The notes under the pieces are model-generated. The model was not told the origin of the DNA, searched no databases, and worked only from the letters and a program-made list of their open reading frames with translations. 27,426 nucleotides of DNA from a virus (Duplodnaviria; Heunggongvirae; Uroviricota; Caudoviricetes): positions 1-27,426 of IMG/VR virus record IMGVR_UViG_2671180885_000001; one strand, written 5' to 3'. The translations under genes were made by a program, and so were the position numbers. Of this stretch, positions 6,242 to 21,525 are shown one piece after another. Positions within the stretch are counted from its first letter, which is position 1; every line of letters starts with the position of its first letter.

Positions 6242-6705
6242 CAGATAAGCTCCACTGTGCAGTGCGGCGCATCCTGCACCCGGCTGATGGCCCAGCGGGC
6301 GTCACGCCACAAATCACCGCTTGCTTCCGCCAGTTCCTCGCCCCGCTTCACACCGGACGCCGTGGCGTCATAGTCCTGGTATCGTTCGTTGAGCATGGCG
6401 CGTGCCCAGCAGTAAACCGCGTTGAAATAGTGCTGAATGCGCTCACTTTTGCCGTCCAGCTTTTCCGCCGGAACTTCTGCCAGCGAGGCATACCCCAGCA
6501 TCTGCTGGCGTCTGCGAAACTCATACAGCTCTGCGTTGACCTCCGAAATTGCCGACAGCGCAACCTGCTTTAAACGCGGCTGCGTCACCGTGCCGTCAGT
6601 GCGCATCACGCTGCGAAACTCCGACAGGTCCACATCAGGCCAGAACGGCGTATTCCTGATGATTTCCGCCTGTTCCGGTGCCTGTTCTGGCGCAACAAAC
6701 TTCAT
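6241..6705 (-). CDS. L: Head completion/stabilisation protein (P2 gpL-like)
   Basis: ORF track 6241..6768; internal ATG at 6705 (MKFVAPEQ) has AGGAGA upstream; synteny M-L-X. Confidence 0.7.
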   Translation of the reverse strand: MKFVAPEQAPEQAEIIRNTPFWPDVDLSEFRSVMRTDGTVTQPRLKQVALSAISEVNAELYEFRRRQQMLGYASLAEVPAEKLDGKSERIQHYFNAVYCWARAMLNERYQDYDATASGVKRGEELAEASGDLWRDARWAISRVQDAPHCTVELI

Positions 6706-6800
6706 GCTGCTTTCTCCTGAAATAGAGGGCGGTGGACGGGGTTTTGATGTGGCAGTGCCTTTCGCCACCCCGTGCCGCCCGTGCGCGGGGGCACGTTCTG

Positions 6801-7451
6801 TCAGCGGCTGTCATTGCGCAGTCTGCGCTCCAGCTGCTGTTTGTCTTTTTTCACGCCACAGCGAGGATCGAGCTGTAACGCATGGTTGAGATGATTAAGG
6901 GCGGAAGCCGGGTTGCTTTCACTCAGGACAGCGCCAATCGCTTTATGCAGACGCGCCCGTGACTGGTCCGGCATATCCAGACCGTCTGTCAGCTCCAGCG
7001 TCTGCAGCAACAGATCGGCATCAAAGCCGGTGGCGGCAAGCATTGCGCTCTGCGCCGCGTCTGCCATTTCCTCTGCCAGCACGGTCTGCACATTGCGATT
7101 ACCCAGTGGCATCACCCAGCCATGACGCAGGGCATGACGCCCGATCTCCAGCGCCCCGGCATAATCTCCGGCATCAATGCGCCACAGCATCACGTACATC
7201 AGCACGTCATCCTGTTGAGCGCCTCCGGCAGCCAGGACACCCTCTGCCCAGGCGACGTATTTCGGCAGCAGTTCCACCTTGATTTCCGCTTTTTTGACCG
7301 TGGACTGAACGCCCTTGAGACGGCGGCGGTCTTCCGCCAGTTGCAGCAGCATCAGGTCATAGCCCGACGCGTGGCGAACACTGCCGCCCTCGCGGGCGGC
7401 CTGTTCAGCCTGAACGCGCAGGCGATGCTGCCGTGCGGGACTCAGGCTCAT
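6801..7451 (-). CDS. M: Terminase endonuclease/small subunit (P2 gpM-like)
   Basis: ORF track 216 aa; synteny O-N-M. Confidence 0.75.
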   Translation of the reverse strand: MSLSPARQHRLRVQAEQAAREGGSVRHASGYDLMLLQLAEDRRRLKGVQSTVKKAEIKVELLPKYVAWAEGVLAAGGAQQDDVLMYVMLWRIDAGDYAGALEIGRHALRHGWVMPLGNRNVQTVLAEEMADAAQSAMLAATGFDADLLLQTLELTDGLDMPDQSRARLHKAIGAVLSESNPASALNHLNHALQLDPRCGVKKDKQQLERRLRNDSR

Positions 7452-7454
7452 GGA

Positions 7455-8513
7455 TTACGCTCCGGTTTCTGCTGCGGCGGCGCTGAAGTCGCCAATCTGG
7501 ATGTTTTCCACCAGTGCGGCGCAGCGGTAGTCCTCAACCACATAGGCTTCGTTAACGGATTCAAAGTTTTCAATCCGGTCACGTTTCGGGTTGTCGATAA
7601 CTGAACGACGGCGAGTGTCTTCCTGCCAGTAGATGGACAGGTTATCCAGACGGGTGATCAGCAGCGCATTCGGCGGGAAGAACGGCGCACGCACTGCCTG
7701 CAGGCCACCCATGCGTTTTTGGCTGATGATCATATCTGCAGCCAGTTTTTCACTGTTCTCCTGCTCTTTGTTGACCAGCGGGAAATACTTGTCAGACAAC
7801 AGTTCACGACCGCAAATCACCACCAGATCGTCATCGTCCTGGTAAACCACGTCGATAAGCTCATTGACGGCATCCATCACCACAGCGTCCAGGTTGGCAT
7901 ATTCGCCACCTTTCCCGACTTTCACCGCACCCGGAGTGGTTTCACCGCCCGTGGTGGTGCTGCCCATGACGTGATCCGGTGCATCCTCACGGATTTTCTG
8001 CAGCCAGCCTTTGTTCACATCCTGCAGCAGCGGGTTTTCGCTACGGTTGGAGGTTTTCGCACGCTTCACGCCGTTAAAGCCGATCATGATGCGGTCCAGT
8101 GCCTGACGTTTCACGATGGCGTCACGGATGCGCACCTGGAAATCCTGAAACTTCGCCCACAGGTCCAGCTTCGCGTAGGTCAGTACCGTGTCAAAGTTGG
8201 TCTGCTCGCATTTATATTCCACATCGACCATCAGCGTCGGATCGACAGGCTCACGCTCTTTTGCGGTGGTATCAGTGGTTCCGGCAATGGTGCTGCCAAC
8301 ACCCAGCCCCAGCAACTGACCAGACTGCTCAGTCACTGGCGTGACGTTAATCAGCGTCAGGAATGCGGCGGATTGCTGGATCTGGTCTTCCAGCGTCTGC
8401 TGCACGGACGGCTCCACAGTGAACTTGCTGGACAGTTCTTCAACTGCCACACCGTTCAGACGCGCCAGCTGCTGCAGGTAAGCGTTAAAAGCAAAGCGGG
8501 TATTCTTCTTCAT
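7455..8513 (-). CDS. N: Major capsid protein (P2 gpN-like)
   Basis: ORF track 352 aa; size and position match P2 N. Confidence 0.85.
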   Translation of the reverse strand: MKKNTRFAFNAYLQQLARLNGVAVEELSSKFTVEPSVQQTLEDQIQQSAAFLTLINVTPVTEQSGQLLGLGVGSTIAGTTDTTAKEREPVDPTLMVDVEYKCEQTNFDTVLTYAKLDLWAKFQDFQVRIRDAIVKRQALDRIMIGFNGVKRAKTSNRSENPLLQDVNKGWLQKIREDAPDHVMGSTTTGGETTPGAVKVGKGGEYANLDAVVMDAVNELIDVVYQDDDDLVVICGRELLSDKYFPLVNKEQENSEKLAADMIISQKRMGGLQAVRAPFFPPNALLITRLDNLSIYWQEDTRRRSVIDNPKRDRIENFESVNEAYVVEDYRCAALVENIQIGDFSAAAAETGA

Positions 8514-8529
8514 CAGGTTTTGTGCTCCA

Positions 8530-9363
8530 TCAGCAATTTGTCAGAGTGTCAGCGGGGGCATTACCGCCTGTTGCACGCTGGCGGTAGTCCTGGCGGCTGT
8601 CTTCATGGCTCAGCTTGTCCACCAGTTCATTAAAGGTGGTCAGCTGTGCCTGCAGGGCTGTCTCCAGCTCAGACAGGCGTTCTTCCTGTTCAGACAGGGA
8701 TTTTTCGGTGCGCGCACTCAGGTTTTGCTGCTCAGTGGCGACCAGCTCCACGGCCTTATGCACATCAGAGAACCGGGCATCATCGGACTGCTCTTTTTTG
8801 GTGAACAGCGCCGTGACACGGGCAAACAGGGATGGTTTTTCGTCCTGGACTTCTTCCAGTTCGATCACCGTTTCCTCTGCAGCGGTAAAGAGATTGGCGG
8901 GGTTCTGCTTGCGGTTTGCCAGCGGGTTATGGGCTGCACTGGCGCTGAATGTCAGCATTTCAGTGCCCAGACTGGCAGGGTCATCAGTGGCAGCCAGGCC
9001 AACCAGGTAGGCTTTGCCCGTATCAGCAAACTTCGGGCTGACTTCCATAGAGGTGAATAATTTCTGGCCTTTTTTCACCAGCTCCACCAGGGACTCCGTT
9101 GGCTCAACGTCGGCATACAGCGCCATCTTGCCTGCCAGCGGACCTTCCTTGATTTCTTCAGCAAACAGCGCCGTCACCTTGCCGTAGCGGTTAAAGGTGC
9201 TGTCCGGCAGATAAGACTTGATGTGCTCAAGGTTAATCAGCGCGGTATACACCGCCGGGTTGTAGCTGGCTGCCATCTGTTCCAGCCATTCACGCTGGAT
9301 TTCGCGTCCGTCGGTGGTGGCACCTTCCACCCCGATGCGAAAACGCTTTGCTTTCACTGTCAT
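8530..9363 (-). CDS. O: Capsid scaffolding protein (P2 gpO-like)
   Basis: ORF track 277 aa; coiled-coil C-terminal region; divergent from P. Confidence 0.8.
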   Translation of the reverse strand: MTVKAKRFRIGVEGATTDGREIQREWLEQMAASYNPAVYTALINLEHIKSYLPDSTFNRYGKVTALFAEEIKEGPLAGKMALYADVEPTESLVELVKKGQKLFTSMEVSPKFADTGKAYLVGLAATDDPASLGTEMLTFSASAAHNPLANRKQNPANLFTAAEETVIELEEVQDEKPSLFARVTALFTKKEQSDDARFSDVHKAVELVATEQQNLSARTEKSLSEQEERLSELETALQAQLTTFNELVDKLSHEDSRQDYRQRATGGNAPADTLTNC

Positions 9364-9441
9364 GAGCCGTGCTCCGTTAGAAAAAACTTACTGGAGCCTT
9401 ATGGTTGCGGTGATAGGGGCAGTGAAACAATGCGCGGTATT

Positions 9442-9459
9442 TGTACCGACAATCACACA
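9442..9459. promoter_or_regulatory. Putative late-promoter activator site (TGT-N12-ACA) in the O/P divergent intergenic region
   Basis: TGTACCGACAATCACACA centred about 55 bp upstream of the P start codon, same spacing as the dyad upstream of V. Confidence 0.3.
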
Positions 9460-9505
9460 AACCGCAGGCGGGGAAAGCCTTCATTCAAGGCTGTAGGTTT
9501 GTGCC

Positions 9506-11272
9506 ATGAACACCACACTGACACCCGCAGATCTCGATCCCCGTCGGCAGGCCATGCTGCTGTACTTTCAGGGATACCGCGTCGCCCGCATTGCTGAAAT
9601 GCTGGGCGAGAAAGTTGCAACCGTTCACAGCTGGAAAAAACGCGACAAGTGGGGTGACTATGGGCCGCTGGATCAGATGCAGCTCACCACCGCCGCACGC
9701 TACTGCCAGCTCATTATGAAGGAGCACAAAGAAGGGAAAGATTTCAAAGAGATTGACCTGCTGGCGCGCCAGTCGGAACGCCACGCGCGGATCGGCAAGT
9801 TTAACAATGGCGGCAACGAAGCCGACTTAAACCCTAACGTCGCCAACCGTAACAAAGGCCCGCGCCGTCAGCCGGAAAAGAATGTTTTCACCGATGAACA
9901 GATTGAGAAGCTGGAAGAAATCTTTCATTCCTCCATGTTCAACTACCAGCGCCACTGGTGGGAAGCCGGAAAAACCAACCGCATCCGCAACCTGCTGAAG
10001 TCACGCCAGATCGGCGCGACCTTCTATTTTGCCCGTGAAGCCCTGATTGACGCCCTGCTGACCGGACGTAACCAGATTTTCCTTTCCGCCAGTAAGGCAC
10101 AGGCCCACGTCTTTAAGCAGTACATCATCGACTTCGCCAAAGAAGTGGAGGTGGAGCTGAAAGGCGATCCGATGGTGCTTCCCAACGGGGCCACACTGTA
10201 TTTCCTCGGCACCAATGCCCGCACGGCCCAGAGTTACCACGGCAACCTGTATCTGGATGAATATTTCTGGATACCGAAATTCCAGGAGCTGCGCAAAGTG
10301 GCTTCCGGTATGGCTATTCACAAGAAATGGCGACAGACCTATTTTTCCACGCCATCCAGCCTGACACACAGTGCTTATCCGTTCTGGTCCGGTGCGCTGT
10401 TCAACCGTGGGCGCAACAAAGCCGACAAGGTGGACATCGACCTGTCCCACAGCAATCTGGCCCCCGGCCTGCTGTGCGCAGACGGGCAATACCGCCAGAT
10501 AGTCACCGTGGAAGATGCGGTGCGCGGCGGCTGTAACCTGTTCGACCTCGACCAGTTGCGCATGGAGTACAGCCCGGACGAATACCAGAACCTGCTGATG
10601 TGCGAGTTCGTTGACGATCTCGCATCTGTGTTCCCGCTCAGCGAATTGCAGGCGTGCATGGTGGACAGCTGGGAAGTCTGGACCGACTTTCATGCACTGG
10701 CCCTGCGCCCGTTTGGCTGGCGCGAAGTGTGGATCGGTTATGACCCGGCAAAAGGTACGCAGAACGGCGACAGCGCCGGATGCGTGGTGGTGGCTCCGCC
10801 AGCCGTGCCGGGCGGTAAGTTTCGCATTCTTGAGCGTCACCAGTGGCGCGGGATGGACTTCCGCGCCCAGGCGGACGCCATCAAAAAACTGACCGAACAG
10901 TACAACGTGACCTATATCGGTATCGACTCAACCGGCGTCGGTCACGGGGTTTACGAGAACGTGAAAGCGTTCTTTCCTGCCGTCCGGGAGTTTGTCTACA
11001 ACCCCAACGTTAAAAACGCCCTGGTACTCAAGGCCTACGACATTATCAGCCACCGCCGTCTGGAGTTTGACGCCGGACATACCGACATTGCGCAGTCATT
11101 CATGGCAATCCGTCGCGCCACCACCGCCAGTGGCAACCGCCCGACCTACGAAGCCAGCCGCAGCGAAGAAGCCAGCCATGCCGATCTGGCATGGGCAACC
11201 ATGCACGCACTGTTTAACGAACCGCTGCAGGGCGAGTCCGCCAATACCAGCAATATTGTGGAGATTTTTTGA
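9506..11272 (+). CDS. P: Terminase large (ATPase) subunit (P2 gpP-like)
   Basis: ORF track 588 aa; ATG at 9506. Confidence 0.85.
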   Translation: MNTTLTPADLDPRRQAMLLYFQGYRVARIAEMLGEKVATVHSWKKRDKWGDYGPLDQMQLTTAARYCQLIMKEHKEGKDFKEIDLLARQSERHARIGKFNNGGNEADLNPNVANRNKGPRRQPEKNVFTDEQIEKLEEIFHSSMFNYQRHWWEAGKTNRIRNLLKSRQIGATFYFAREALIDALLTGRNQIFLSASKAQAHVFKQYIIDFAKEVEVELKGDPMVLPNGATLYFLGTNARTAQSYHGNLYLDEYFWIPKFQELRKVASGMAIHKKWRQTYFSTPSSLTHSAYPFWSGALFNRGRNKADKVDIDLSHSNLAPGLLCADGQYRQIVTVEDAVRGGCNLFDLDQLRMEYSPDEYQNLLMCEFVDDLASVFPLSELQACMVDSWEVWTDFHALALRPFGWREVWIGYDPAKGTQNGDSAGCVVVAPPAVPGGKFRILERHQWRGMDFRAQADAIKKLTEQYNVTYIGIDSTGVGHGVYENVKAFFPAVREFVYNPNVKNALVLKAYDIISHRRLEFDAGHTDIAQSFMAIRRATTASGNRPTYEASRSEEASHADLAWATMHALFNEPLQGESANTSNIVEIF

Positions 11273-12312
11273 TGAAAGAACATATCGCGCCAGGCGAAAC
11301 CGTAACTGCAGAAGAAACTAAAAAACCCGTTGCGGAGGCTTTCAGCTTTGGTGATCCCATTCCTGTACTGGACCGCCGCGAACTGCTGGACTATGTGGAA
11401 TGCGTACAGATGGATCGCTGGTATGAGCCGCCCGTCAGTTTTGACGGACTGGCACGAACCTTCCGCGCCGCCGTGCACCACAGCTCCCCGATCAGTGTTA
11501 AACGTGACATCATCAGCAGTACCTATATTCCACATCGCCTTCTCAGCCAGCAGGCATTTACCCGTTTTGTGCAGGACTATCTGGTTTTTGGTAACGCCTA
11601 TCTGGAGAAGCGCACGAATCGCTTTGGTGAAGTTATTTCGCTGGAGCCTGCACTGGCAAAATACACCCGGCGCGGGCTTGACCTTGAAACATACTGGTTT
11701 GTGCAATACAGCCTGACGACACAGCCGTATCAGTTCACAAAAGGTAACGTCTTCCACCTGATGGAGCCGGATATCAACCAGGAGATTTATGGTCTGCCGG
11801 GTTACCTTTCTGCCATTCCGTCAGCTCTGCTCAACGAATCCGCCACGCTGTTCCGCCGCAAGTATTACATTAACGGCAGCCACGCAGGCTTCATCATGTA
11901 CATGACCGACGCCGCGCAGAACCAGGAGGATGTGAACAACATCCGCAAGGCAATGAAAAGTGCTAAAGGGCCGGGCAACTTCCGCAACCTGTTTATGTAC
12001 TCGCCTAACGGCAAAAAAGATGGCATTCAGATTATCCCGTTGTCGGAAGTCGCGGCGAAGGATGAATTTCTGAACATCAAGAACGTCAGCCGCGATGACA
12101 TGATGGCGGCTCACCGCGTACCGCCGCAAATGATGGGCATCATTCCCAACAACACTGGCGGCTTTGGTGATGTGGAAAAAGCGAGCCGTGTCTTCGTCCG
12201 CAATGAACTGATGCCACTGCAAAAGCGACTGCAGGAGCTGAATGACTGGCTGAATGAAGAGGTGATCCGTTTTGAAGCTTATGACTTAGGGCTTAAGGGC
12301 AAACGAGGCTGA
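11272..12312 (+). CDS. Q: Portal protein (P2 gpQ-like)
   Basis: ORF track 11269..12312; ATG at 11272 overlaps the P stop (TGATG); P-Q order toward cos as in P2. Confidence 0.85.
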   Translation: MKEHIAPGETVTAEETKKPVAEAFSFGDPIPVLDRRELLDYVECVQMDRWYEPPVSFDGLARTFRAAVHHSSPISVKRDIISSTYIPHRLLSQQAFTRFVQDYLVFGNAYLEKRTNRFGEVISLEPALAKYTRRGLDLETYWFVQYSLTTQPYQFTKGNVFHLMEPDINQEIYGLPGYLSAIPSALLNESATLFRRKYYINGSHAGFIMYMTDAAQNQEDVNNIRKAMKSAKGPGNFRNLFMYSPNGKKDGIQIIPLSEVAAKDEFLNIKNVSRDDMMAAHRVPPQMMGIIPNNTGGFGDVEKASRVFVRNELMPLQKRLQELNDWLNEEVIRFEAYDLGLKGKRG

Positions 12313-12347
12313 CATACTCATAACATCAAAACCCGACCAACTCTCAC

Positions 12348-12383
12348 AACGCCTCAGCAGCATTCTGCGGGGCGTTTCTTTTT
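12348..12383 (+). terminator. Putative intrinsic terminator downstream of Q
   Basis: Imperfect GC-rich hairpin (AACGCC..GCAG / CTGC..GGCGTT) followed by TCTTTTT. Confidence 0.4.
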
Positions 12384-12472
12384 GCCCTGAATCTCCCCCC
12401 CCTCCACTAAATGAGGCCGCCAGCGGGCCAGAGGCTGTGCCGGATTTTGGCCATTTTACCCCGTTGCGCGCG

Positions 12473-12491
12473 CTCGTATCCCCGCCACGCC
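12473..12491. other. Putative cos (cohesive end) site
   Basis: Minus strand reads GGCGTGGCGGGGATACGAG; the first 13 nt match the start of the 186/P2 19-nt cohesive end as I recall it; position between Q and the tum/dinI-A block is where cos lies in P2-family prophages. Confidence 0.4.
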
Positions 12492-12694
12492 TGCCCGCTT
12501 TGTGTAGTGGTTTTCATGCACCTGCATGACATAAGCAAAAGCCCGCCAGTTCTGGCGGGCCTGAGCAAAAACGATCCTCAAACGATCATGCGATTTCATG
12601 CGGCATAGACATGCACAACAGCACTAACGCCTCGCGTGGCTCGTTGTTCAACCTTGCGGACGGTAAAAACCAGTTTTATCGTCCGCAACGTTCG

Positions 12695-12928
12695 CTAATG
12701 TAACCAGCTGTCGTCCTCCCAGACCTGCTGCATTATTTCCATCACTCGCTTTTTATCTTCATCCAGTTTTAACCCGCTCAGCTCAACGCCGTTGGCACTG
12801 CCCTTACGGATACGAATTGCTGTTTTGGGATACAGAGGGCGCAAATTACGGTAAAGCTCGGATTCAAGGGCGTCCAGTGTAGCCTGGCTAATCTTCTGCT
12901 CTTTATCGATCATTATTTCAATGCGCAT
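12695..12928 (-). CDS. DinI-family protein
   Basis: ORF track 77 aa, MRIEIMIDKEQ...EIMQQVWEDDSWLH, typical DinI length and termini; own RBS AAGGGA. Confidence 0.75.
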   Translation of the reverse strand: MRIEIMIDKEQKISQATLDALESELYRNLRPLYPKTAIRIRKGSANGVELSGLKLDEDKKRVMEIMQQVWEDDSWLH

Positions 12929-12939
12929 ACAGATTTCCC

Positions 12940-13155
12940 TTAACTGGTTACGTCCATTGACCGGCAGTATTCATGGCTGCGGATTTTCGCCATCAGCTCG
13001 TCGGTCAATTCAGACACCCACTGGATAGCCAGCCGCTTTTCTTCGTCGCTGCACTCACTAGCCGCTACAAGCTTAATAAAAAAATCAATGCGCTGGAGCT
13101 TCAACGACTCCAAAAGATAGTCCTGCATCTTCCCTCCTATCACGACCCCGGACAT
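12940..13155 (-). CDS. Small SOS-controlled protein, possible Tum-like antirepressor (start uncertain, alternative ATG at 13128)
   Basis: ORF track 71 aa; directly downstream of a strong LexA box; position matches the 186 tum region downstream of A. Confidence 0.4.
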   Translation of the reverse strand: MSGVVIGGKMQDYLLESLKLQRIDFFIKLVAASECSDEEKRLAIQWVSELTDELMAKIRSHEYCRSMDVTS

Positions 13156-13175
13156 GCGTTAACTGTATGCATATC

Positions 13176-13195
13176 CACTGTTTATATATACAGTA
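13176..13195 (-). promoter_or_regulatory. LexA operator (SOS box) overlapping the promoter of the tum-like/dinI-like operon
   Basis: Minus strand TACTGTATATATAAACAGTG, i.e. CTGT-N8-ACAG with AT-rich spacer; overlaps a TATACT -10-like hexamer about 20 bp upstream of the ATG at 13155. Confidence 0.65.
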
Positions 13196-13289
13196 TACCC
13201 CTGATATCCAAAAGTAAAATATTTTTTATCCGTCAATGAGAACGTTCTTACGAGGGTCGTTAAGAGCATGAATTGTTAAAGCCTTGCCG

Positions 13290-15683
13290 TCAGTACCACT
13301 GGCGCCATTTGTCATCTTCCTGCAGTCGATGGTTGCGGTAAAAAATCCGTAGCCCGGCACCTGACGGAATGCTGCCACCACGCAGAAGCAAATCAATCTC
13401 AGATGCACTACCTTCAAACCCTCTGGCAGTCAGTTCTGCCTCAAGCTGCAGGCTCTGCTGCTCCGAAATACTCTGTTTGAATGCTTTTTTCCGCTTCGGT
13501 TTTACCAGTCTTAACCTGGCTGTCAGCTCCCGGCGTTCCTTCTGGCCCATATTGTGGAGGTAATCGTGCAGTTCCTGCTCATTCATGGTTTTAATATCGG
13601 GCAAATCACCCCCTGATTTGTTCAGATTTTCAACAGGGGGACAGTTATTGCCACGAGTCCAAGGGGCGCAAGCGCCCTGGTCGGCTGCCGCCTCCTGAAC
13701 GTCAACGACCTTACGAACCATTTTCCATTTCATTGCATGAGTGCAGATCTTGCCCTGTACAATGGGTGACCAGATGCCATAAATACGAATACCGTGATCG
13801 CCATAAGCGGTCGGCTCTTCGTTAATTTCATAAGCTGTTCTGATAAGGTGATATTTGCGGGGAACCAGTACGCCGCCCTGCTTCATGATGTAGGTGGCAA
13901 AACAGCCAGCATCAGCGGCAGCCAGGATGGCATCAAGGCGCGGGTCATCCAGTACCGGCGCACCTGCTTTTTTGTCACCCTGTTGCCTTGCCGCCTGACC
14001 AGCCAGCAAGCGAAGTTCACGGTACGCCTGACGCCCCGGAATACCAAAGAAGCGGAACTGCTGAACACGATGCAGAGACGCCCAGGCATTAACGTATTCG
14101 GCGTTATCACGCAGGGATTTACCCGTTTCCTTGCTGATCTCGCCAGCCAGACCACGTCCGTCAATGTTCTTACTGATGTATTTCGCGATGTAGCTTGTCG
14201 GCGTTCCTTTGCGCGGGTTTATCAGCTCAGACTTAAAGCGTGGACCAGTGTTATTACCCAGCTCCTCGCGGTCTTCACGAATGGCAAACTTACGCAACAA
14301 AGCAGTAATGGCGCGGCGATCTTTTTTGCGCATAAAACACAACAGGTGCCAGTGAACTGTACCGTCATGATGCGGCTCAGCCACCCGCACGCCATACCAG
14401 CGCAATCCGGCTTTGTGCATCGCCTTACGAAATGCAGCAAACATGCCGACCAGATAATCACTGCTTTGTCTTACCGTCGCATTTGTCCAGGTCGGGTTGG
14501 GCCTGCCGTTATTTAGCGTGGAATGGAAACGTGACGGACAGGTGATGGTGTAGAAAACGGCGCAGTCACCGCGCATTTCCGCGATAAGCTCCAGACCTTT
14601 AACACAGGCCATCATCTCATTGCGGCGATGCGCAGGGTTGCTGCTGCTGGCGTTTACCACATCCTCCATGTCCAGCGTGTCGCCGTCTTCGTTCACCAGT
14701 TCATGAGAACGGAAAAACTCCAGCGACTTACGGCGCTGCTCACGTTTATGCATCACGGCTTCATAGCTGACATAAGGAGATGCTTTTTTGCTGACCAGGC
14801 AGACAGCGCGCAACTGCTCTTCCCGCCATTCGCAACGCATCTTCCATAATTTCCGATACCACCAGTCGGCGCACAACATACGCGCCAGCGAACCCGGAAT
14901 GAGTTCATAGGGCACGGGTTTACGGCGGTTTCTTTTCCGGCGGAGTTGATCAAACGCAGGCGGGATGACATCCAGACGCAGGGTTTCCGCTGCCACCTTT
15001 TCCCATGTCTTGCGGATTTCTTCTGGCTTAACGTCATCGGTGACATACAAATCGCCACAAGCTGCATCAAGGCACATGCTCATATGCGCAGCGACAAGGG
15101 TAGACAAGCGTTTCACCTGCTCCTGACTCATTTCAGGCAGGATCAGCAGGCCGTCCAGCCCTTCATGGCTTGCCATAAAGCGAAAAGAAGTGGATAGCTG
15201 ACTGTCGCGTACATGCTCCAGTCGTTCCAGACATGGCTTAATCGTCTCACGCAAATAGCGGGAATAAGCCTTTGGCCTGCCCAGACTGCTGAAGTATTCA
15301 ATACGTTGCATCAGCGGCTTGCTGATATGGGAAGGCTGGGCGTTAACGTCTGCCAGAATGACCATGTCCGGGTTAAAACGCTGCTGCTCATGCGCCAGCT
15401 TTGCCCGGCTAATGAGCTTATCCTGCTCCATTTCGCGTTGGACAGGATCACGGGATTCATTAAAGAAATAACGCTCCCAGACCTGATCACTCAGTGCCTC
15501 GCGGCGCAGTTGTTCCTGCTCGTTATCGGCAGCGTACAGAGTGATCAGGTTTGAAAGCGCAGAAACCGGCGCAACTTCCGCCGGGTCCAGATAAGGGTTA
15601 ATGGCCTTTTTCGGGCTGTTCCATGAGAATGCTGCGGCGACCTCGTTAAAGCCGCTGCAGTTGTTCATATCATCATGGCTCAT
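13290..15683 (-). CDS. A: Replication initiation endonuclease (P2 gpA-like, rolling-circle HUH-type)
   Basis: ORF track 797 aa; VHWHLL HUH-like motif and YIAKYISK tyrosine motif; ATG overlaps Dam stop. Confidence 0.85.
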
Positions 15684-16537
15684 GCACGCACTCCGTACAT
15701 GGCAGAACTATCCACGCCACGCGAAGGATCAAATCCCACCCAGCAGCGCGCCCCGGAAACAGCAATGATTTCTGTTGCAGATTTACTCTCGCCAGCCGAC
15801 ACGCCGATGCTGCGTTTTGCCTTGATGTAGTGGTGAGTGAAATTGCGATACAGCGAACGAATCAGGGATGTGTCACTGTTAGAAACAATGACCGGATGAC
15901 CTTCAGATGATCGATGTTCAAGAACGGATGCCAGGTGATACTGGTCATCTTCAGTGAAGCCATCAGTGTGATAGCCGGAAAACGTACCGTCATACGGCGG
16001 ATCGCAATACACCACATCCCCCACCTGCAGCATCGCCAGCGTTTCATCAAAGCTTGCGCAGATAAACGTTGCACGCTGGGCTTTCTCTGCAAATGCGCGA
16101 ATTTCTTTTTCAGGGAAATACGGATTTTTATAATTACCGTACGGAATGTTGAAATGCCCGCTCTTGTTATAGCGACATAATCCACGGTAACCATGACGAT
16201 TGAGATACAGGAAATATACCGCTTTCATGAAATCAGTAATTTCAGTGGAGTAATTAAACTCCTGCCTTATGTTGTAATAAGCCACCTCCCTGTTTGCTTC
16301 CTCAAATAAAGCTCTGGCACGAGATATAAACGCCTCGCAATCAGCAGCAACCTTTTTATAGAGGTTGATTAAATCAGGATTAATATCCGCAACAAGATAG
16401 CTGGGGTAATCCGTCTCCATCATCACAGCACAGGAACCCGCGAAAGGTTCAACCAGTCGCGGGCCAGCAGGAAGGTGTTTTTTCAGTTCGGACATAATGG
16501 CGATTTTATTTCCCGCCCATTTCAGGATGGTGCTCAT
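15680..16537 (-). CDS. DNA adenine methyltransferase (Dam family, N6-adenine, probable GATC specificity)
   Basis: ORF track 15680..16597; internal ATG at 16537 ([11 protein letters not shown]) with GGAGG upstream; motifs FAGSCAV (AdoMet binding) and DPPY (catalytic); ATGA overlaps with both neighbours. Confidence 0.8.
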
Positions 16538-16761
16538 ACAGCACCTCCGTTGTAATGTTTGCCTTTCAGCTCTGCAATTTCCTGGCAGGTAATGCAAAGC
16601 TGCACACCCGGAATGGCACGGCGGTGTGCTGGCGGAATTGGCGCTTCACACTCAATGCAAAGCACGCGAGACACGCCCGGTGTTTTGGCACGGGCAGCAC
16701 GGATATGGCGCTGGCGTTCTTCTTCAACGCGCTGCTGTACGAGATCCATTGCATCAGCCAT
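16534..16761 (-). CDS. TraR/DksA-family C4 zinc-finger protein
   Basis: ORF track 75 aa; CIEC...CITC four-cysteine pattern near C-terminus. Confidence 0.65.
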   Translation of the reverse strand: MADAMDLVQQRVEEERQRHIRAARAKTPGVSRVLCIECEAPIPPAHRRAIPGVQLCITCQEIAELKGKHYNGGAV

Positions 16762-16994
16762 TAGTGGATCTCCTGCGCTTCGTTCTGGATTGCTTCAGCA
16801 GTCACACGCAGCAGTTCTGCCGCTTCCACGTGGTTTAGCTGACGGGATGAGATATGACACGCCAGGCTATCAAGGCGAGCTGCCATTGCTTCAGCCCTTG
16901 CCCGGCGTTCTTCCAGACGAGCCTCTGTCAGTAAAATATTAAGCCCTGCATCATCCGGTCCGGTTTTAGTCGTGAGGGTTTCAATATTACGCAT
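16761..16994 (-). CDS. Hypothetical early-region protein
   Basis: ORF track 16761..17000 starts on a non-ATG codon; ATG two codons in (about 16994) sits about 7 nt after AGGAGA; my hand reading of this stretch was internally inconsistent by 1 nt, so exact start is uncertain. Confidence 0.4.
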   Translation of the reverse strand: MRNIETLTTKTGPDDAGLNILLTEARLEERRARAEAMAARLDSLACHISSRQLNHVEAAELLRVTAEAIQNEAQEIH

Positions 16995-17061
16995 AATCAA
17001 TTCTCCTGAATTTAGATAAAGGGATGCCCGGCGGGTTTACGCCATTAATTTCATTAGTTGG

Positions 17062-17403
17062 TTAATTCGGCATGGTTAGCCGTCTGGGAAATAAGCTCAC
17101 CACTGCACGAAAATGATTCATTGCTTTAATCAACTCCCGCTTTTCGTCAGTGGTCAGCTCATTAATGCTGATGCTATGACGTTCAGCTGGAATTTTTGCC
17201 ATAAAGAATATGGCAGCCAGTGCCCGTTTATTTTGTTCGCTATTAATATCCCGTGAATCACGCATATCTTTAATAAACCGCTCAAGCTCTGACTCAATAT
17301 TCAGGCCAAAAACTTTCGCCCTTAACTCCGCAATGTGATTAAGTCCATTCAGGCGTTCACCGGGGCTTAATGGAACAGTCGCCGCAGTGCCTTCAATAGC
17401 CAT
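17062..17403 (-). CDS. Hypothetical protein, somewhat AT-richer than neighbours
   Basis: ORF track 113 aa; in-operon position between B and A. Confidence 0.4.
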   Translation of the reverse strand: MAIEGTAATVPLSPGERLNGLNHIAELRAKVFGLNIESELERFIKDMRDSRDINSEQNKRALAAIFFMAKIPAERHSISINELTTDEKRELIKAMNHFRAVVSLFPRRLTMPN

Positions 17404-17567
17404 TGGTTCCCCCGTTTTTTCGTTGATAGTTCTGCCAGCAATTCATCCTGTGAACGGCACGGATGCCAGCGTTTACCATCCTCACCCATGATCCAGCCGT
17501 GACCGTAGTGCATTGCCGGGCTTTGTTTAACCAGCAGCGATGCAAATGATGGTTCTTTCGTAAGCAT
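17367..17567 (-). CDS. Hypothetical small protein
   Basis: ORF track 17367..17600; internal ATG at 17567 (MLTKEPSF) with GAGGTG upstream, just downstream of the B stop. Confidence 0.35.
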   Translation of the reverse strand: MLTKEPSFASLLVKQSPAMHYGHGWIMGEDGKRWHPCRSQDELLAELSTKKRGNQWLLKALRRLFH

Positions 17568-17574
17568 AAGCACC

Positions 17575-18084
17575 TCACAGCAAACCGAATGAAGCACCAA
17601 GGCCAGTCATGGTATCAACTGCACTCGCCATCGCAGGATTAGCCTGTAAGCGGGCCTGCAATGAAACAGCAGCCAGCGCCATCAGTCGTGTAACAGAGTT
17701 AATGCTGCTGATAGCATCACGACGGCCTGCACTGGTTTTTACATCTCCAGAAACCGCACCTGCCGCGACACGACCTATCTCTGCAGTTGCACTCATGACG
17801 TAATGCGGTAGTTTCTCTTTTGCCACCTCATTAATCGGAACACATGGCAGACAATGAATCTGTGCCAGAAAACCATCTACCAGCGTTGAATCTTCAGTCA
17901 GATCGGTAAGTAGCCAGATATCTGGCGCATTGAGCTGATGCGGTTGATCTGGGTTGAGTTTGTTTCGCAGAGTCTGGACATTCATTCCTGCACGTTCTGC
18001 CAGCTTCGCCATATTGTGACGAAGTGCAAAAGCTCTACAGGCTTCATCAAAATGCGGGTGTTTGGAAATCTTATAATCAAACAT
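17575..18084 (-). CDS. B: Replication protein B (P2 gpB-like, helicase loader)
   Basis: ORF track 169 aa; size and position (between cox-like gene and A) match P2 B. Confidence 0.7.
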   Translation of the reverse strand: MFDYKISKHPHFDEACRAFALRHNMAKLAERAGMNVQTLRNKLNPDQPHQLNAPDIWLLTDLTEDSTLVDGFLAQIHCLPCVPINEVAKEKLPHYVMSATAEIGRVAAGAVSGDVKTSAGRRDAISSINSVTRLMALAAVSLQARLQANPAMASAVDTMTGLGASFGLL

Positions 18085-18116
18085 GCTACCCCCTTAGAAA
18101 GTTCTCATAATTGAAC

Positions 18117-18359
18117 TTACTTACCAACAATGACGCGGAAGTTGGAATGACCGAGGGATTCACGGACCTGATCGGTTTTGTACATTAAATAACGCAGGTT
18201 TACGCGGCCTTTGTTTTTTTCTTTCTTGACCATGTATTTAGCAAGCTGACCATGGTGAATTTTTTGATACACGGAGCCGCGGGAGATACCTTCCCATTCC
18301 GCGAACTCTGCAGGCGTAGCCATCTCTTTTGGTACACGAATTGAAATATCAGTGCTCAT
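18117..18359 (-). CDS. Cox/Apl-like excisionase and transcriptional regulator
   Basis: ORF track 80 aa; HTH-like segment PAEFAEWEGISRGSVYQKIHHGQL; first gene of the early operon, divergent from the repressor. Confidence 0.6.
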   Translation of the reverse strand: MSTDISIRVPKEMATPAEFAEWEGISRGSVYQKIHHGQLAKYMVKKEKNKGRVNLRYLMYKTDQVRESLGHSNFRVIVGK

Positions 18360-18389
18360 AGTGCAGTATCTCCCGATTAAGGTTTGGTT

Positions 18390-18465
18390 TACGTCGTTTT
18401 ATCTCGTTTTACTTGATTCAATATTTGATACATCGAGATACTACGATCCAATATTTGATACGTCA
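18390..18465. promoter_or_regulatory. Lysogeny/lysis switch region with direct-repeat operator candidates
   Basis: Direct repeats CAATATTTGATAC (about 18419 and 18449, 30 bp apart) and TCGTTTTA (twice near 18393-18411) between divergent cox-like and repressor genes. Confidence 0.4.
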
Positions 18466-18478
18466 ACAGGATTAAAAA

Positions 18479-19111
18479 ATGATACAGGTAAAGGTTGGAG
18501 AGAATACAGGGGGAAGAGAGGCTATCCATAGACTAATGGCAGCCTATGATTTCAAGTCCAGACAGCAACTTTGCGATCACTTAGGCGCATCAAAAAGCAC
18601 CATGGCAAACAGATACTTAAGAGATAGTTTTCCTGCAGAGTGGGTGATTCAGTGCGCCTTGGAAACAGGAGTTTCTTTACTGTGGCTAACCACCGGACAG
18701 GGGGAGCCAGGTCCAAACATTGAACCTAAAAAAAATATCAATTCCGTGAACTCCAGCAAGGTTGTACCTCTTTCTGAACTAGTATCTCCTGAAATTGACA
18801 AGGCGACTCTCAACGGTGGTTTATTGGTCGATGCTGGAAAAGCAATCATTGATAGCAGCATACTCCCCTCAGACTCAAGCAACCTACTGCTGGTGACTAC
18901 TTCTGGTGATTCTTATTTAATAGATCGCAACCAAACACCACCAGTAAATGGTATGTGGTTAGTCGATATCGACGGGATAAAAAGCATCGTTAAATTGACT
19001 CGACTCCCGGGAAACAAATTAGTAGTGCATCAGGATGATTCATCGTTTGAGTGCGGTCTGGATGACATTGAGGTAGTAGGCCGCGCACTGAAAATCATTA
19101 AGAGCCTTTGA
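18479..19111 (+). CDS. cI: Immunity repressor, 186 CI-like (N-terminal HTH, C-terminal oligomerisation domain)
   Basis: ORF track 210 aa; far longer than P2 C (about 99 aa) and close to 186 CI (about 190 aa); immediately upstream of int. Confidence 0.65.
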   Translation: MIQVKVGENTGGREAIHRLMAAYDFKSRQQLCDHLGASKSTMANRYLRDSFPAEWVIQCALETGVSLLWLTTGQGEPGPNIEPKKNINSVNSSKVVPLSELVSPEIDKATLNGGLLVDAGKAIIDSSILPSDSSNLLLVTTSGDSYLIDRNQTPPVNGMWLVDIDGIKSIVKLTRLPGNKLVVHQDDSSFECGLDDIEVVGRALKIIKSL

Positions 19112-19112
19112 T

Positions 19113-20132
19113 ATGACCATCAGAAAACAGCCGAACGGAAAATGGTTGTGTGAGTGCTATCCCAATGGACGCAATGGCAAGCGCGTGCGTAAGCAATTTG
19201 CCACGAAAGGCGAAGCCATTGCGTTTGAAAGCTTCACAATGGAAGAAGTGAATAAAAAACCGTGGTTGGGTGAAAAGGATGATCGGCGACGCCTATCAGA
19301 ATTAATTGAGCTTTGGTATTCCCTGTATGGTCAGACACTCGCAGACCCCAAGCGCCTCATGGCGAAACTTAGAATTATCTGTAATGGTCTAGGCGACCCC
19401 ATCGCCTCTGAGCTGACAGCAGGTGATTTCACAAAATATCGGGAAGCCAGATTAAAGGGGGAGGTCCAAAATGAAGACGGTTCGTTCATGTCACCCGTTA
19501 AACCTCGCACAGTTAATCTTGAGCAGCGTAACCTGTCATCGGTGTTCGGTACATTGAAAAAACTAGGGCACTGGTCCGCACCAAACCCGCTGGCAGGGCT
19601 TCCAACCTTCAAAATTGCTGAAGGTGAATTGGCTTTTCTTTCCACGGACGAAATCAAACGCCTGTTGGCTGCATGTGCTGAATCTCAAAGCCCGAGCCTA
19701 CTAATGATTACCAAAATATGCTTAGCTACCGGCGCACGGTGGAGTGAAGCCGAAAAACTGCAGGGCCATCAGTTATCCAAATACCGCATCACTTATACCA
19801 AGACGAAGGGCAAGAAAAACCGTACCGTGCCGATATCTCAGGAGCTGTACAACGAACTTCCTAAAAACCGAGGGAAGTTATTCTCGCCATGCAGAAAAGC
19901 CTTTGAGCGTGCAGTAAAGCGGGCCGGTATTGAGCTTCCAGAGGGTCAATGCACCCATGTATTACGTCATACATTTGCCAGCCATTTTATGATGAACGGA
20001 GGAAACATACTTGTTCTTAAAGAGATTCTCGGTCATACAGATATAAAAATGACAATGGTTTATTCTCATTTTTCCCCAGACCATCTTGAAGATGCCGTTA
20101 CCAAAAACCCTTTACATATGTTAACTATTTGA
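19113..20132 (+). CDS. int: Tyrosine integrase (P2 Int family)
   Basis: ORF track 339 aa; C-terminal catalytic region HVLRHTFAS...LGH...Y; position next to att. Confidence 0.9.
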   Translation: MTIRKQPNGKWLCECYPNGRNGKRVRKQFATKGEAIAFESFTMEEVNKKPWLGEKDDRRRLSELIELWYSLYGQTLADPKRLMAKLRIICNGLGDPIASELTAGDFTKYREARLKGEVQNEDGSFMSPVKPRTVNLEQRNLSSVFGTLKKLGHWSAPNPLAGLPTFKIAEGELAFLSTDEIKRLLAACAESQSPSLLMITKICLATGARWSEAEKLQGHQLSKYRITYTKTKGKKNRTVPISQELYNELPKNRGKLFSPCRKAFERAVKRAGIELPEGQCTHVLRHTFASHFMMNGGNILVLKEILGHTDIKMTMVYSHFSPDHLEDAVTKNPLHMLTI

Positions 20133-20142: not shown

Positions 20143-21363
20143 ATGGATATTAAAAACAAAGTCAATAAAGAAAAGTTATTTGAGAACCATTTAAACTCAT
20201 TATTAAAACAAGTCATTTCCGAACCAAAATTAAACCCTCCACTTATAGTACATAGAGATATAATAAGTGACTTCACTGAACGTTGCGATAAGTATCTAAA
20301 AACAATAATTAAATACAAAAGCAACAATAAAGATGGGATGCCGAATTTTGATGAATTAATCAGCAAAGCTAAGAACATTCAAAATGGAATAACATTATCA
20401 CTTGAAAGTTTTTTATCCGGTGATATCAAGTCAGCATATGACCACTTTGATAAAACATTCTCTGATAACTCAACAATCCAACACATACATCGCATCACTA
20501 CTCCACTCAGTAGCATTTGCAATCATAAAAAACCATTATTTCGAGTTAGAAAAAGTGAAAATCCTCTAACGTCAAGAGATGAAATTTTCCATATTCCATT
20601 CTCCAATAGACATTTTGTTAGTGCACAAAGATATTCAGTCGCTGGCTTACCATGTTTATATCTTGGCACTTCTGTTTATGTTTGTTGGCAGGAGATGGAA
20701 AAACCAGATTTTGACAAGCTTTTTATTTCATCATTTACTACCAGTGAAACTGAATATAAAGTCTTAAACTTTGCATCACAGCTTTTGTTACATCCCTCAC
20801 CAAATTACGCTGACGAAAATAAACTAGCCGAAACAAATAGAGTAAAGGCCTCTTATCTCATTTTCTGGCCTTTAATTATTGCATGTAATTATTTAAAAAA
20901 TCATCGTTCTGCAACATTCATACAAGAGTACATTATCCCTAATTTGTTGATGCAATGGATTAGTAGAAAAACTTACTCGAAAATTGTCGGTGTAGCTTAC
21001 TTCTCTACAAAAATGCCTAATTCACGATTAAGTAACCGCTCAATAAATGTTGTATTTCCACCCAAAGTTACATATGAACAAACGGTAAAACAAAATTTTT
21101 GCCCTAAACTCTCCACATTATTCGACTTTACGCCACCTATTTCGTGGCAGGTCTTAAAAACATTAGATCATTCATCAATAACAGAAAATTCAATAGAATT
21201 GATGATGTCAAAGAGATATCTTCAAAGTCAAGAAAAACTGTCTGGAATTAAAAACTTCGAAGAGGACATTGTAAAACTATACCCCTTAACTGATTTTTAC
21301 AAACTCGAAAGAAGTATTGATATGCTATTTGAATATAAAAAGATAGATAACCCCATACTATAA
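20143..21363 (+). CDS. AT-rich cargo protein of unknown function with RES-domain-like motifs
   Basis: ORF track 406 aa; markedly lower G+C by eye than all flanking phage genes; blocks LFRVRK, RYSVAGLPCLYLGTSVYVCWQEM and GVAYFSTK resemble the Arg, Glu and Ser blocks of RES-domain toxins (from memory, not searched). Confidence 0.55.
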   Translation: MDIKNKVNKEKLFENHLNSLLKQVISEPKLNPPLIVHRDIISDFTERCDKYLKTIIKYKSNNKDGMPNFDELISKAKNIQNGITLSLESFLSGDIKSAYDHFDKTFSDNSTIQHIHRITTPLSSICNHKKPLFRVRKSENPLTSRDEIFHIPFSNRHFVSAQRYSVAGLPCLYLGTSVYVCWQEMEKPDFDKLFISSFTTSETEYKVLNFASQLLLHPSPNYADENKLAETNRVKASYLIFWPLIIACNYLKNHRSATFIQEYIIPNLLMQWISRKTYSKIVGVAYFSTKMPNSRLSNRSINVVFPPKVTYEQTVKQNFCPKLSTLFDFTPPISWQVLKTLDHSSITENSIELMMSKRYLQSQEKLSGIKNFEEDIVKLYPLTDFYKLERSIDMLFEYKKIDNPIL

Positions 21364-21478
21364 AACTGGCGACAAATTGGCGGCAGAACTTTAAAATCAC
21401 ATAAAACAGCCAAACACAAGATAAGACTAATTCACTGATTTAAAAAGTAAATATCTATTTTCACTATAATATAAATGG

Positions 21479-21525
21479 TATGTAGGAATTTCGGACGCGG
21501 GTTCAACTCCCGCCAGCTCCACCAA
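21479..21525 (+). other. Prophage attachment core (attR) = duplicated 3'-terminal about 47 nt of ssrA (tmRNA), ending CCA
   Basis: ATGTAGGAATTTCGGACGCGGGTTCAACTCCCGCCAGCTCCACCA matches the E. coli tmRNA 3' end (T-arm, acceptor stem, CCA); upstream sequence is not ssrA, so this is a partial copy. Confidence 0.8.

Follow-up and report, generated by a model that had tools for sequence, protein, structure and literature searches.

A dam gene directly ahead of the replication gene A is a known component of P2-like phages. It has been annotated in this slot in Fels-2, in RE-2010 and in dozens of Klebsiella and Salmonella phages. In Fels-2, in RE-2010 and in the P2-like Klebsiella phages (genus Felsduovirus and relatives) the gene order is cII, fil, DUF5347, DUF2732, DksA-like gene, dam and A, and the dam CDS is 858 nt long and overlaps its neighbors in each case. 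In Fels-2 these last three genes are STM2731 (DksA-like), STM2730 (dam) and STM2729 (gpA-like), and STM2730 was annotated by similarity to the enzyme of the Ec67 element. The Dam methylase of the retron-Ec67 prophage was reportedly described by Hsu, Inouye and Inouye in 1990 (PNAS 87:9454). The Ec67 element is a roughly 34-kb 186-related prophage (PMC7826664), and it carries its retron between cos and a terminator.

Other members of the group fill the same place differently. Phage P2 encodes no putative methylases (PMC3091744) and has Orf83 (DUF5405) between the DksA-like zinc-finger gene and A, while phage 186 has an exonuclease-like gene, a DUF5405 gene and orf84, which is PAPS-reductase-like. 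The P2 and 186 slot proteins are unrelated to Dam, and their genes overlap the start of A in a similar manner (ATGA in 186). Outside this group, T2 and T4 Dam, P1 Dmt, HP1 Dam and VT-2 Dam are phage-carried solitary GATC adenine methylases (PMC7556043, PMC12707154), the class to which the gene discussed below would also belong. The E. coli chromosomal enzyme (b3387; PDB 2G1P) is encoded in the damX-dam-rpe operon.

The window, i.e., the whole stretch of DNA analyzed, is 27,426 nucleotides long (IMG/VR record IMGVR_UViG_2671180885_000001) and includes a P2-family prophage without its tail-fibre and late-control end. The features of its dam locus are listed in Table 1. The operon order (int, cI / apl, cII, fil, ..., DUF2732, DksA-like gene, slot, A), the collinearity and the divergent promoter-like sites of the switch identify the region as the early lytic operon of a Fels-2/186-like member of the Peduoviridae. 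Gene by gene it follows the order of Fels-2 and RE-2010, and the encoded proteins are 74-99% identical, the exception being cI, which is only 58% identical to that of Fels-2. The gene A product is 93% identical to A of RE-2010 and 83% identical to the Fels-2 gpA-like protein, and the dam product is 96% and 74% identical, respectively, to its counterparts in these two elements; at the DNA level dam is 95-97% identical to the gene in many Klebsiella phages. These relatives differ from the window prophage in their hosts, RE-2010 has a different immunity region with a short P2-type repressor, and both Fels-2 and RE-2010 have extra cargo beside cos that is absent in the window. The hotspot in which Ec67 carries its retron is empty in the window, where the terminator lies at 12562-12539 and a cos-like sequence at 12480-12491. 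A sequence-only reading had placed dam between a TraR-like gene and A with ATGA overlaps on both sides, had stated that P2 has no methyltransferase there, and had proposed a comparison with Fels-2-type prophages. The overlaps are read directly from the sequence, and the P2 and Fels-2 arrangements described above bear out the rest. Taken as a whole, we hold it highly probable that the dam product is a solitary (orphan) alpha-group Dam N6-adenine methyltransferase that acts on GATC early in lytic growth and whose gene is optional cargo of a Fels-2/186-like P2-family E. coli prophage.

Table 1. Features of the dam locus and the early lytic operon (positions in the window).
Feature	Position	Strand	Basis or remark
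dam, 285-aa solitary Dam-family (D12 class) N6-adenine DNA methyltransferase	15680..16537	-	stop codon included
Motif I codons, F32-A-G-S-C36, AdoMet-binding loop	16430..16444	-	sequence and alignment
DNA-recognition hairpin codons, residues 117-136	16130..16189	-	alignment with E. coli Dam
Catalytic motif IV codons, D179-P-P-Y182 (GAT CCG CCG TAT)	15992..16003	-	sequence and alignment
C-terminal tail codons, residues 261-285	15683..15757	-	alignments
Replication gene A, encoding a 797-aa nickase that initiates rolling-circle replication, directly downstream of dam	13290..15683	-	PF05840 E=3.9e-128
ATGA overlap, dam stop / gene A start	15680..15683	-	stop TGA 15682-15680, A ATG 15683-15681
ATGA overlap, TraR-like stop / dam start	16534..16537	-	stop TGA 16536-16534, dam ATG 16537-16535
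TraR/DksA-family C4 zinc-finger gene, 75 aa, directly upstream of dam	16534..16761	-	PF01258 E=6.3e-09; TIGR02419 60.8 bits; phrog_54
Upstream genes of the early lytic operon holding dam	16761..18359	-	Pfam and PHROG matches; collinear with Fels-2, RE-2010
DUF2732	16761-17000	-	
DUF5347	17062-17403	-	
fil	17367-17600	-	
cII	17575-18084	-	
apl/cox-like	18117-18359	-	
Presumed early promoter pR, cI/apl switch region	18438..18466	-	TTGACG, 17 nt spacer, TAGTAT; consensus scan

The dam ORF runs uninterrupted from 16537 to 15680 on the minus strand (285 codons and a TGA), and the earlier description of a complete Dam-family enzyme with DPPY and FAGSC motifs holds. The translated protein matches PF02086 over profile positions 1-253 of 253 (E=1.9e-76, 257.6 bits, cut-off 22) and TIGR00571, 'Dam family site-specific DNA-(adenine-N6)-methyltransferase', with 323.9 bits (cut-off 114.85); these full-length matches over curated thresholds place it in the Dam family, D12 class. 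The top PDB matches are structures of E. coli Dam (2g1p, E=1.9e-74), followed by the GATC-specific DpnM (2dpm, 2.4e-33) and T4 Dam (1.5e-17). As sequence comparisons, the profile and structure matches are far beyond chance, and the match to the solved E. coli Dam structure settles the fold. The order of the motifs, an N-terminal AdoMet motif I followed later by a motif IV of the (D/N)PP(Y/F) type, is that of the alpha group. Motif I aligns with F35-V-G-A-G39 of E. coli Dam, and each of its residues F32, A33, G34, S35 and C36 is invariant in 40 family representatives; its last position, a G in E. coli Dam, has C in the window protein and L in T2 Dam. D179-P-P-Y182 aligns with D181-P-P-Y184 of E. 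coli Dam and is invariant in that alignment. A longer version of the ORF, initiated by a TTG at 16597, was rejected: all homologues share the N-terminus of the ATG version and the CDSs annotated in Fels-2 and RE-2010 are 858 nt long. The possibility of a pseudogene was also rejected given the intact ORF and the invariant catalytic residues.

While the window protein shares the fold family, motif order and GATC-contact residues of E. coli Dam, it lacks the 5-residue insertion that follows DPPY in the host enzyme, and its C-terminus carries a 25-residue tail that the host enzyme does not have. Its score against the housekeeping equivalog NF008152 / PRK10904 is 290.9 bits, well under the cut-off of 441, and the gene is located in a phage lytic operon rather than in damX-dam-rpe. 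It is a phage paralogue and not the host dam. The identity to T2 Dam is only 23%.

As for its role, the most likely one that we infer is to methylate phage DNA at GATC while it replicates in lytic growth, the enzyme being expressed together with A. The enzyme would methylate the adenine of GATC and would be transcribed from the CI-repressed early promoter, so that it should be made mostly after infection or induction and not in a quiescent lysogen; translation in step with the neighboring genes would make it appear along with the rolling-circle initiator A. Phage-directed GATC methylation looks redundant because E. coli already has Dam. The host Dam is limiting under rapid phage DNA replication, and an additional enzyme could keep fast-replicating phage DNA fully methylated at GATC. 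Full methylation, in turn, would shield progeny DNA, on entering the next host, from restriction that cuts at GATC and is sensitive to methylation, and would leave no un- or hemimethylated sites for MutH to nick or SeqA to bind. The prophage part of the window has 71 GATC sites where 94 are expected, but this ratio of 0.76 is within the spread of other 4-bp palindromes (CTAG 0.43, GGCC 0.48), and composition thus gives no argument for or against selection by GATC-directed restriction. In P1, GATC methylation at pac is required (PMC7556043, PMC12707154). In contrast, the cos-like sequence of the window prophage suggests packaging from a cos site. Methylation-dependent packaging is not known in P2-type phages.

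The place of dam in the operon is a variable slot, of which the gene is optional cargo. Besides the P2 and 186 occupants, other close relatives have the slot empty, with TraR directly beside A, or otherwise filled, and since relatives with an empty slot exist dam must be dispensable for replication. The slot could be more than this: a place between the TraR/DksA-like gene and A that P2-family phages dedicate to exchangeable enzymes acting on phage DNA, with the synthesis of the occupants tied to that of A by the overlaps and with the Dam tail (residues 261-285) linking the enzyme with the replication machinery or with translation of A. The occupants under this reading are Dam, a DndC/PAPS-reductase-like protein and an exonuclease-like protein, and tying their synthesis to the initiator would result in nascent phage DNA being modified while it is made. 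In the alignments the tail has no counterpart in E. coli Dam or T2 Dam, and some of its residues are conserved among the prophage enzymes (W266, G274, D276, V283). The 3' end of its codons contains the ribosome-binding site of gene A. An AlphaFold model built from a 40-sequence, low-diversity alignment (pLDDT 67.9, pTM 0.64) has values below 50 in the DNA hairpin and the C-terminal tail, and for this reason residues 264-285 are probably disordered. A shared cis element at the junction of the slot and A was not found: when the end of dam and the beginning of A were aligned, only RE-2010 matched, and there was no homology to the P2 Orf83/A or 186 orf84/A junctions. We consider a dedicated slot of this kind unlikely, but if it existed the locus would be a counter-defence hotspot and not a single ordinary gene.

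With respect to expression, a scan of 12300-19200 for sigma-70 promoter-like sites gave just one upstream of dam on the strand of the gene, at 18438..18466. The position of this site matches that of pR of 186, the site is part of a pair of divergent promoter-like sites at 18438-18483, and it is presumed to be the early promoter pR. The consensus scan returned 3 promoter-like sites versus 7.9 in shuffled sequences. No promoter-like or terminator-like site adjoins dam on its own strand in the scanned region. The top-scoring match of the scan is located on the plus strand at 16107-16134, antisense within dam, and is a consensus match only. In Fels-2, STM2729 and STM2730 shift together in a microarray study (PMC3844500).

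The suggestion that the enzyme alters host gene regulation is the weakest part of the sequence-only reading: dam lacks a promoter-like site of its own, and its place is in an early lytic operon repressed by CI. As a lysogenic-conversion regulator, dam would be made in the lysogen and would raise Dam activity, with effects on phase-variable switches, mutation rate or antibiotic tolerance. In Salmonella, Dam dosage is known to influence both prophage excision and the phase variation that depends on GATC (reviewed in PMC7380047), and in colistin-adapted Klebsiella the common change was an amplified Fels-2-like prophage with this dam, for which the authors speculated on the methylase (PMC7826664); the link to colistin is, however, speculation by the authors' own account. 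Against expression in the lysogen, no promoter-like site was found on the dam strand between pR and dam, and the gene is locked by 4-nt overlaps into the repressed operon. Morons usually have a promoter of their own and an odd composition, as exemplified by orf406 with its 31.7% GC, whereas dam has 47% GC, similar to that of the neighboring genes. A regulatory role in the lysogen is accordingly a decidedly improbable explanation.

The sequence specificity can be considered in terms of the residues through which E. coli Dam contacts GATC (PMC4417163). The equivalents of K9, Y119, L122, R124, P134 and Y138, which are K6, Y117, L120, R122, P132 and Y136 in the window protein, are all conserved and, across 40 representatives, invariant. 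In the hairpin Y117, R118, G119, L120, C121, R122, P132, G134 and Y136 do not vary in these 40 sequences. As the protein has 46% identity to E. coli K-12 Dam over the catalytic core and keeps the GATC-contact residues, GATC is very likely its target. Two hairpin replacements distinguish it from the host enzyme, R118 for N120 and N135 for R137. Since N120 contacts a base in E. coli Dam, the R118 replacement leaves room for a subtle difference, and the enzyme may differ slightly in site or flank preference. A larger departure, in which dam methylates a site other or broader than GATC and provides wider anti-restriction cover, would be in keeping with the fixation of both replacements across the family, with the first base pair being the one that E. 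coli Dam reads least accurately (PMC4417163), and with the existence of very relaxed phage methylases (PMC7556043; M.EcoGII, PMC12707154). Nevertheless, the GATC enzyme T2 Dam differs at these two positions as well (S and K), and a close homologue bears the name of a Dam methylase. The family also shows no variation at R122, the counterpart of the R124 that enforces the fourth base pair, at L120 and P132, which concern the third base pair, or at Y117, K6 and Y136. Altered or relaxed specificity is consequently very unlikely, and methylation of GATC remains the preferred reading.

The two ATGA junctions are preserved among relatives: the start context of dam is kept in 65 of the 66 relatives that carry the gene, and an [A/G]TGA overlap is found at the dam stop in 59 of them. 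A GGAGG is located at 16548-16544, 6 nt 5' of the dam ATG, and a GGAG at 15694-15691, 7 nt 5' of the ATG of A. From this arrangement dam is inferred to be translated in step with its neighbors; dam and A each have their own Shine-Dalgarno sequence, and dependence on the overlaps is putative here. According to the phage 186 record, whose orf84/A junction is also ATGA, translation of A appears to need translation through the end of orf84, and a terminator within A is active when A is untranslated. By analogy, the dam ORF could be a catalytically irrelevant passenger kept mainly to deliver ribosomes to A, an idea in line with the 186 record and with the presence and conservation of the junction. 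However, gene A has its own GGAG, and relatives with TraR directly beside A indicate that no long upstream ORF is required. Moreover, 40 representatives of the cluster, with identities as low as 71%, show no variation at the catalytic and DNA-contact positions, a pattern that indicates selection for enzyme function. A mere passenger is therefore extremely doubtful.

Finally, the absence of a cognate endonuclease noted at first reading stood up to domain searches of all sizeable ORFs in the window, in none of which an endonuclease-like domain was detected. In PADLOC the protein scores highest with oMTase (orphan methyltransferase), at 372.5 bits, ahead of MTase_II. A Type II restriction-modification system consists of a methyltransferase and an endonuclease of the same specificity, and such a system was rejected here, as no restriction endonuclease is present in the window or annotated in complete Fels-2 (49 features) or in the 11.9-kb RE-2010 dam region. 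That dam is the modification half of a system with its endonuclease outside the window is scarcely credible: although the window does not cover all prophage genes and Dam-family members such as DpnM do belong to restriction-modification systems, the codons of TraR and A overlap those of dam and leave no room for an adjacent endonuclease, the two relatives have no annotated partner, and the best model is of the orphan class.

The gene is common. A near-identical copy is found in 1239 of 5426 complete E. coli genomes (about 23%), the exact protein is present on 109 public contigs, and its 90% cluster has 4038 members. One of these, called 'retron EC67 DNA adenine methylase' by its source, is 94% identical to the window protein; the Ec67 enzyme is, like the window protein, 285 amino acids long and a member of the same cluster, a link that rests on database naming. 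The prophage at this particular junction is absent from the complete E. coli genomes in the collection, in which the best flank matches start at about window positions 21360-21480. With the same gene annotated at the same position in Fels-2 and a copy in about one quarter of complete E. coli genomes, dam is ordinary and has little weight as a discovery, its presence, location and orphan status being known and widely annotated. Its importance is of another kind. Strains with such prophages have a second GATC methylase, which may switch on during induction, and this is relevant to the reading of methylomes, of the phenotypes of dam mutants and of assays based on DpnI and MboI. Being common, optional and located beside the replication initiator, the gene would be a convenient test case for the function of phage Dam enzymes.

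Within its early operon, adjacent to the gene for the rolling-circle initiator, the prophage encodes a Dam-family enzyme that is intact, conserved and solitary. Its gene, dam, is an uninterrupted minus-strand ORF of 285 codons that runs from an ATG at 16537 to a TGA ending at 15680. A mechanical ORF call extends it to a TTG at 16597, but the ATG is favored as the start because all homologues begin at this codon and the annotated dam coding sequences of the P2-family phages Fels-2 and RE-2010 are 858 nt long. A Shine-Dalgarno-like GGAGG is located 6 nt 5′ of the dam ATG and a GGAG 7 nt 5′ of the gene A ATG; the codons for the terminal VRA of Dam supply the ribosome-binding site of gene A. The sequence-only reading had described a complete Dam-family gene with FAGSC and DPPY motifs, lying between a TraR-like gene and replication gene A and joined to each by an ATGA overlap. 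Since the ORF, the motifs and the overlaps all match, this description was accurate in every detail.

Features of the prophage and its flank, in coordinates of the window
Feature	Coordinates	Strand	Remarks
Baseplate, tail-completion, lysis, head and terminase genes	roughly 1-12312		
cos-like GGCGTGGCGGGG	reverse complement of 12480-12491		after structural genes
Strong terminator	12562-12539	−	
Small LexA-box-controlled operon with DinI-like gene	12695-13193	−	
77-aa ORF	12695-12928	−	length and position match Fels-2 DinI-family gene
71-aa ORF	12940-13155	−	phrog_698
LexA box	13178-13193		near-consensus, CTGT-N8-ACAG
Early lytic operon	18359 down to 13290	−	apl/cox-like, cII, fil, DUF5347, DUF2732, TraR-like, dam, A
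ATGA, dam stop and gene A start	15683-15680	−	from the sequence
DPPY motif	16003-15992	−	dam residues 179-182, GAT CCG CCG TAT
FAGSC motif	16444-16430	−	dam residues 32-36
ATGA, TraR/DksA-like stop and dam start	16537-16534	−	from the sequence
TraR/DksA-like gene	16761-16534	−	upstream of dam; TGA overlaps dam ATG
cI	18479-19111		divergent from early operon
int	19113-20132		
AT-rich 406-codon ORF	20143-21363	+	follows int; GC 31.7% vs about 52% in prophage
Host flank with 1569-aa Ag43/AIDA-type autotransporter	21685-27426		autotransporter matches E. coli ypjA/EhaD

The window covers a P2-family prophage over its left two thirds, together with an E. coli flank. This flank, the ypjA/EhaD autotransporter region with IS1, is 99-100% identical to many E. 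coli chromosomes; all E. coli genomes of the collection contain the right-end sequence, and IS1-family transposases are among the annotated features at the matching sites. The window lacks tRNA and tmRNA genes, which places the attachment-site gene beyond it or at the opposite end of the prophage. The 406-codon ORF separates int from the junction with host DNA (about 21360-21480). It matches PHROG 7835 ("unknown function"), searches of Pfam, PADLOC and PDB gave no hit, and a similarly sized, unnamed ORF occupies this position in RE-2010. The 406-codon ORF resembles a moron gained by horizontal transfer and could be a defence gene. The minus strand of 12470-13200 has the character of an SOS-type module. 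The cos-adjacent hotspot, which holds old/tin in P2, an Abi gene in RE-2010 and a retron in the 186-related Ec67 phage, is empty here.

A scan of the dam strand between 12300 and 19200 detected a single promoter-like site upstream of dam, at 18466-18438 in the cI/apl switch region, the position occupied by pR in phage 186, and no terminator-like site flanking dam. The presumed pR region (18416-18466, minus strand) includes a direct repeat in two copies, GTATCAAATATTG(G/A)ATC, probably the operators of CI; a GATC site (18445-18448) falls within the first copy, immediately 5′ of the −10 hexamer. The best-scoring sigma-70-like match in 12300-19200 (TTTTCA, 16-nt spacer, TATAAT; 10/12 consensus) lies antisense within dam at 16107-16134 on the plus strand, and is probably a chance occurrence as the scan gave fewer sites than shuffled controls.

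The Dam protein matches PF02086 (D12-class N6-adenine methyltransferase) across the whole profile (E = 1.9e-76) and reaches 323.9 bits with TIGR00571, the Dam family of site-specific adenine-N6 methyltransferases, for which the cut-off is 114.85. Its score with NF008152, the housekeeping Dam equivalog, is 290.9 bits, below the 441-bit cut-off, which identifies it as a paralogue and not the host dam. The top solved structures were E. coli Dam (E = 1.9e-74), the GATC-specific DpnM (2.4e-33) and T4 Dam (1.5e-17); identity is 46% to E. coli K-12 Dam and 23% to T2 Dam. E. coli Dam recognizes GATC and enters the helix through K9 and Y138 at the first base pair, L122 and P134 at the third, R124 at the fourth and the intercalating Y119 (PMC4417163). 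These correspond to K6, Y136, L120, P132, R122 and Y117, none of which varies among 40 cluster representatives of the prophage family with identities as low as 71%. The hairpin differs from that of E. coli Dam at two positions, N120 to R118 and R137 to N135, where T2 Dam, also a GATC enzyme, has S and K. As the contact residues are kept and the two differing positions also vary in T2 Dam, specificity for GATC is very likely. An AlphaFold model made with a shallow alignment reached a pLDDT of only 67.9; its core shows the expected alternating strand/helix pattern, and pLDDT falls below 50 for residues 117-137, which form the DNA hairpin, and for the C-terminal 22 residues. The C-terminal tail, residues 261-285 (15683-15757, minus strand), is predicted to be disordered. 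It is absent from E. coli and T2 Dam; among members of the prophage family it is conserved in part (W266, G274, D276, V283 and the terminal VRA). In a few E. coli database proteins (P0008, P0009 and P0074; 456-496 amino acids), approximately 90% of this Dam is joined to PF05954, the phage late control gene D domain; these proteins probably derive from internal prophage deletions or misassemblies rather than represent a real fusion enzyme.

The gene is already known and very common. Megablast matched its 858 bases to 56 phage records, with coverage of 80% of the gene or more in 47; Salmonella phage RE-2010 (Felsduovirus) is among the matches, as are many P2-like phages of Klebsiella. Among the annotated records listed, a DNA adenine methylase or methyltransferase lies under the match and nearly all also have a replication protein and a TraR/DksA-like gene. 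The suggestion that Fels-2-type prophages carry dam at the same site held: STM2730 of Fels-2, annotated as a "DNA adenine methylase-like protein" similar to the retron EC67 DNA adenine methylase, is 74% identical and lies between the DksA-like STM2731 and the gpA-like STM2729. A copy is found in 1239 of 5426 complete E. coli genomes, nearly all at 90-99% DNA identity, and the two neighbors are the same in the best six of these matches. An identical protein is already public on 109 contigs, and its 90% cluster has 4038 members, one of which, 94% identical, is named "retron EC67 DNA adenine methylase". The Ec67 element is a 186-related prophage of roughly 34 kb, for whose Dam gene PMC7826664 and PMC8989520 cite Hsu, Inouye and Inouye (1990). 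The observation is confirmed and its interpretation supported.

Reviews describe the function of Dam enzymes in phages as mostly unclear, P1 packaging being the exception. Transcription from the CI-repressed early promoter would occur mainly after infection or induction, translation would proceed in step with the TraR-like protein and A, and the enzyme would methylate GATC on replicating phage DNA. The explanation with most support, still a guess, is that host Dam, being limited, cannot keep pace with rolling-circle replication and that the phage enzyme keeps progeny DNA fully methylated. In the next host this would protect progeny from methylation-sensitive restriction that cuts at GATC, and it would avoid MutH nicking and SeqA binding; limited host Dam, GATC-sensitive restriction and the effects of MutH and SeqA are established Dam biology. 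The GATC frequency in the prophage, 0.76 of expectation, does not discriminate between these ideas. An epigenetic role in lysogenic conversion is possible but disfavored, since the scan gave dam no promoter of its own and its composition is similar to that of neighboring genes. Altered specificity is disfavored by the invariance of the GATC-contact residues. A purely translational "spacer" is contradicted by the invariant catalytic residues and by relatives in which the position is empty. That dam is half of a restriction-modification system is excluded within the window and the complete Fels-2: no window ORF contains a nuclease or restriction-enzyme domain, in line with what the sequence-only reading had noted for the vicinity of dam, and no endonuclease is annotated in Fels-2. 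None is annotated in the 11.9-kb RE-2010 dam region either. The best PADLOC model for dam is "orphan methyltransferase" (372.5 bits; best type II model, 289.9).

The sequence-only reading was right that P2 lacks a methyltransferase at this position: between its DksA-like gene and A there is Orf83 (DUF5405), and P2 encodes no methylase (PMC3091744). In 186 the same slot holds three genes, an exonuclease-like gene, DUF5405 and the PAPS-reductase-like orf84, the last of which overlaps A by ATGA. The 186 record states that [quoted passage not shown] and indicates a terminator within A, active when A is untranslated. The slot was surveyed in the 80 IMG/VR contigs with the closest A protein (L006-L085; 79-98% identity in the best aligned segment). 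It is occupied by dam alone in 60, by dam and a PAPS-reductase-like gene in five, and in one each by an exonuclease-like gene with dam, a PAPS-reductase-like gene alone, another ORF of 157 aa (L067), and a 5′-truncated dam whose 3′ half remains behind an unrelated 189-aa ORF (L028); in about nine the slot is empty and the TraR-like gene directly adjoins A. Of the 66 dam-carrying relatives, 65 have the dam start within an ATGA, and 59 have the dam stop overlapping a start codon, ATG or GTG. The dam gene can therefore be regarded as cargo that is optional and its position as exchangeable; the overlapping codons are a property of the slot and not of dam itself. Conceivably, the slot is a general site for DNA-modifying or counter-defence cargo.
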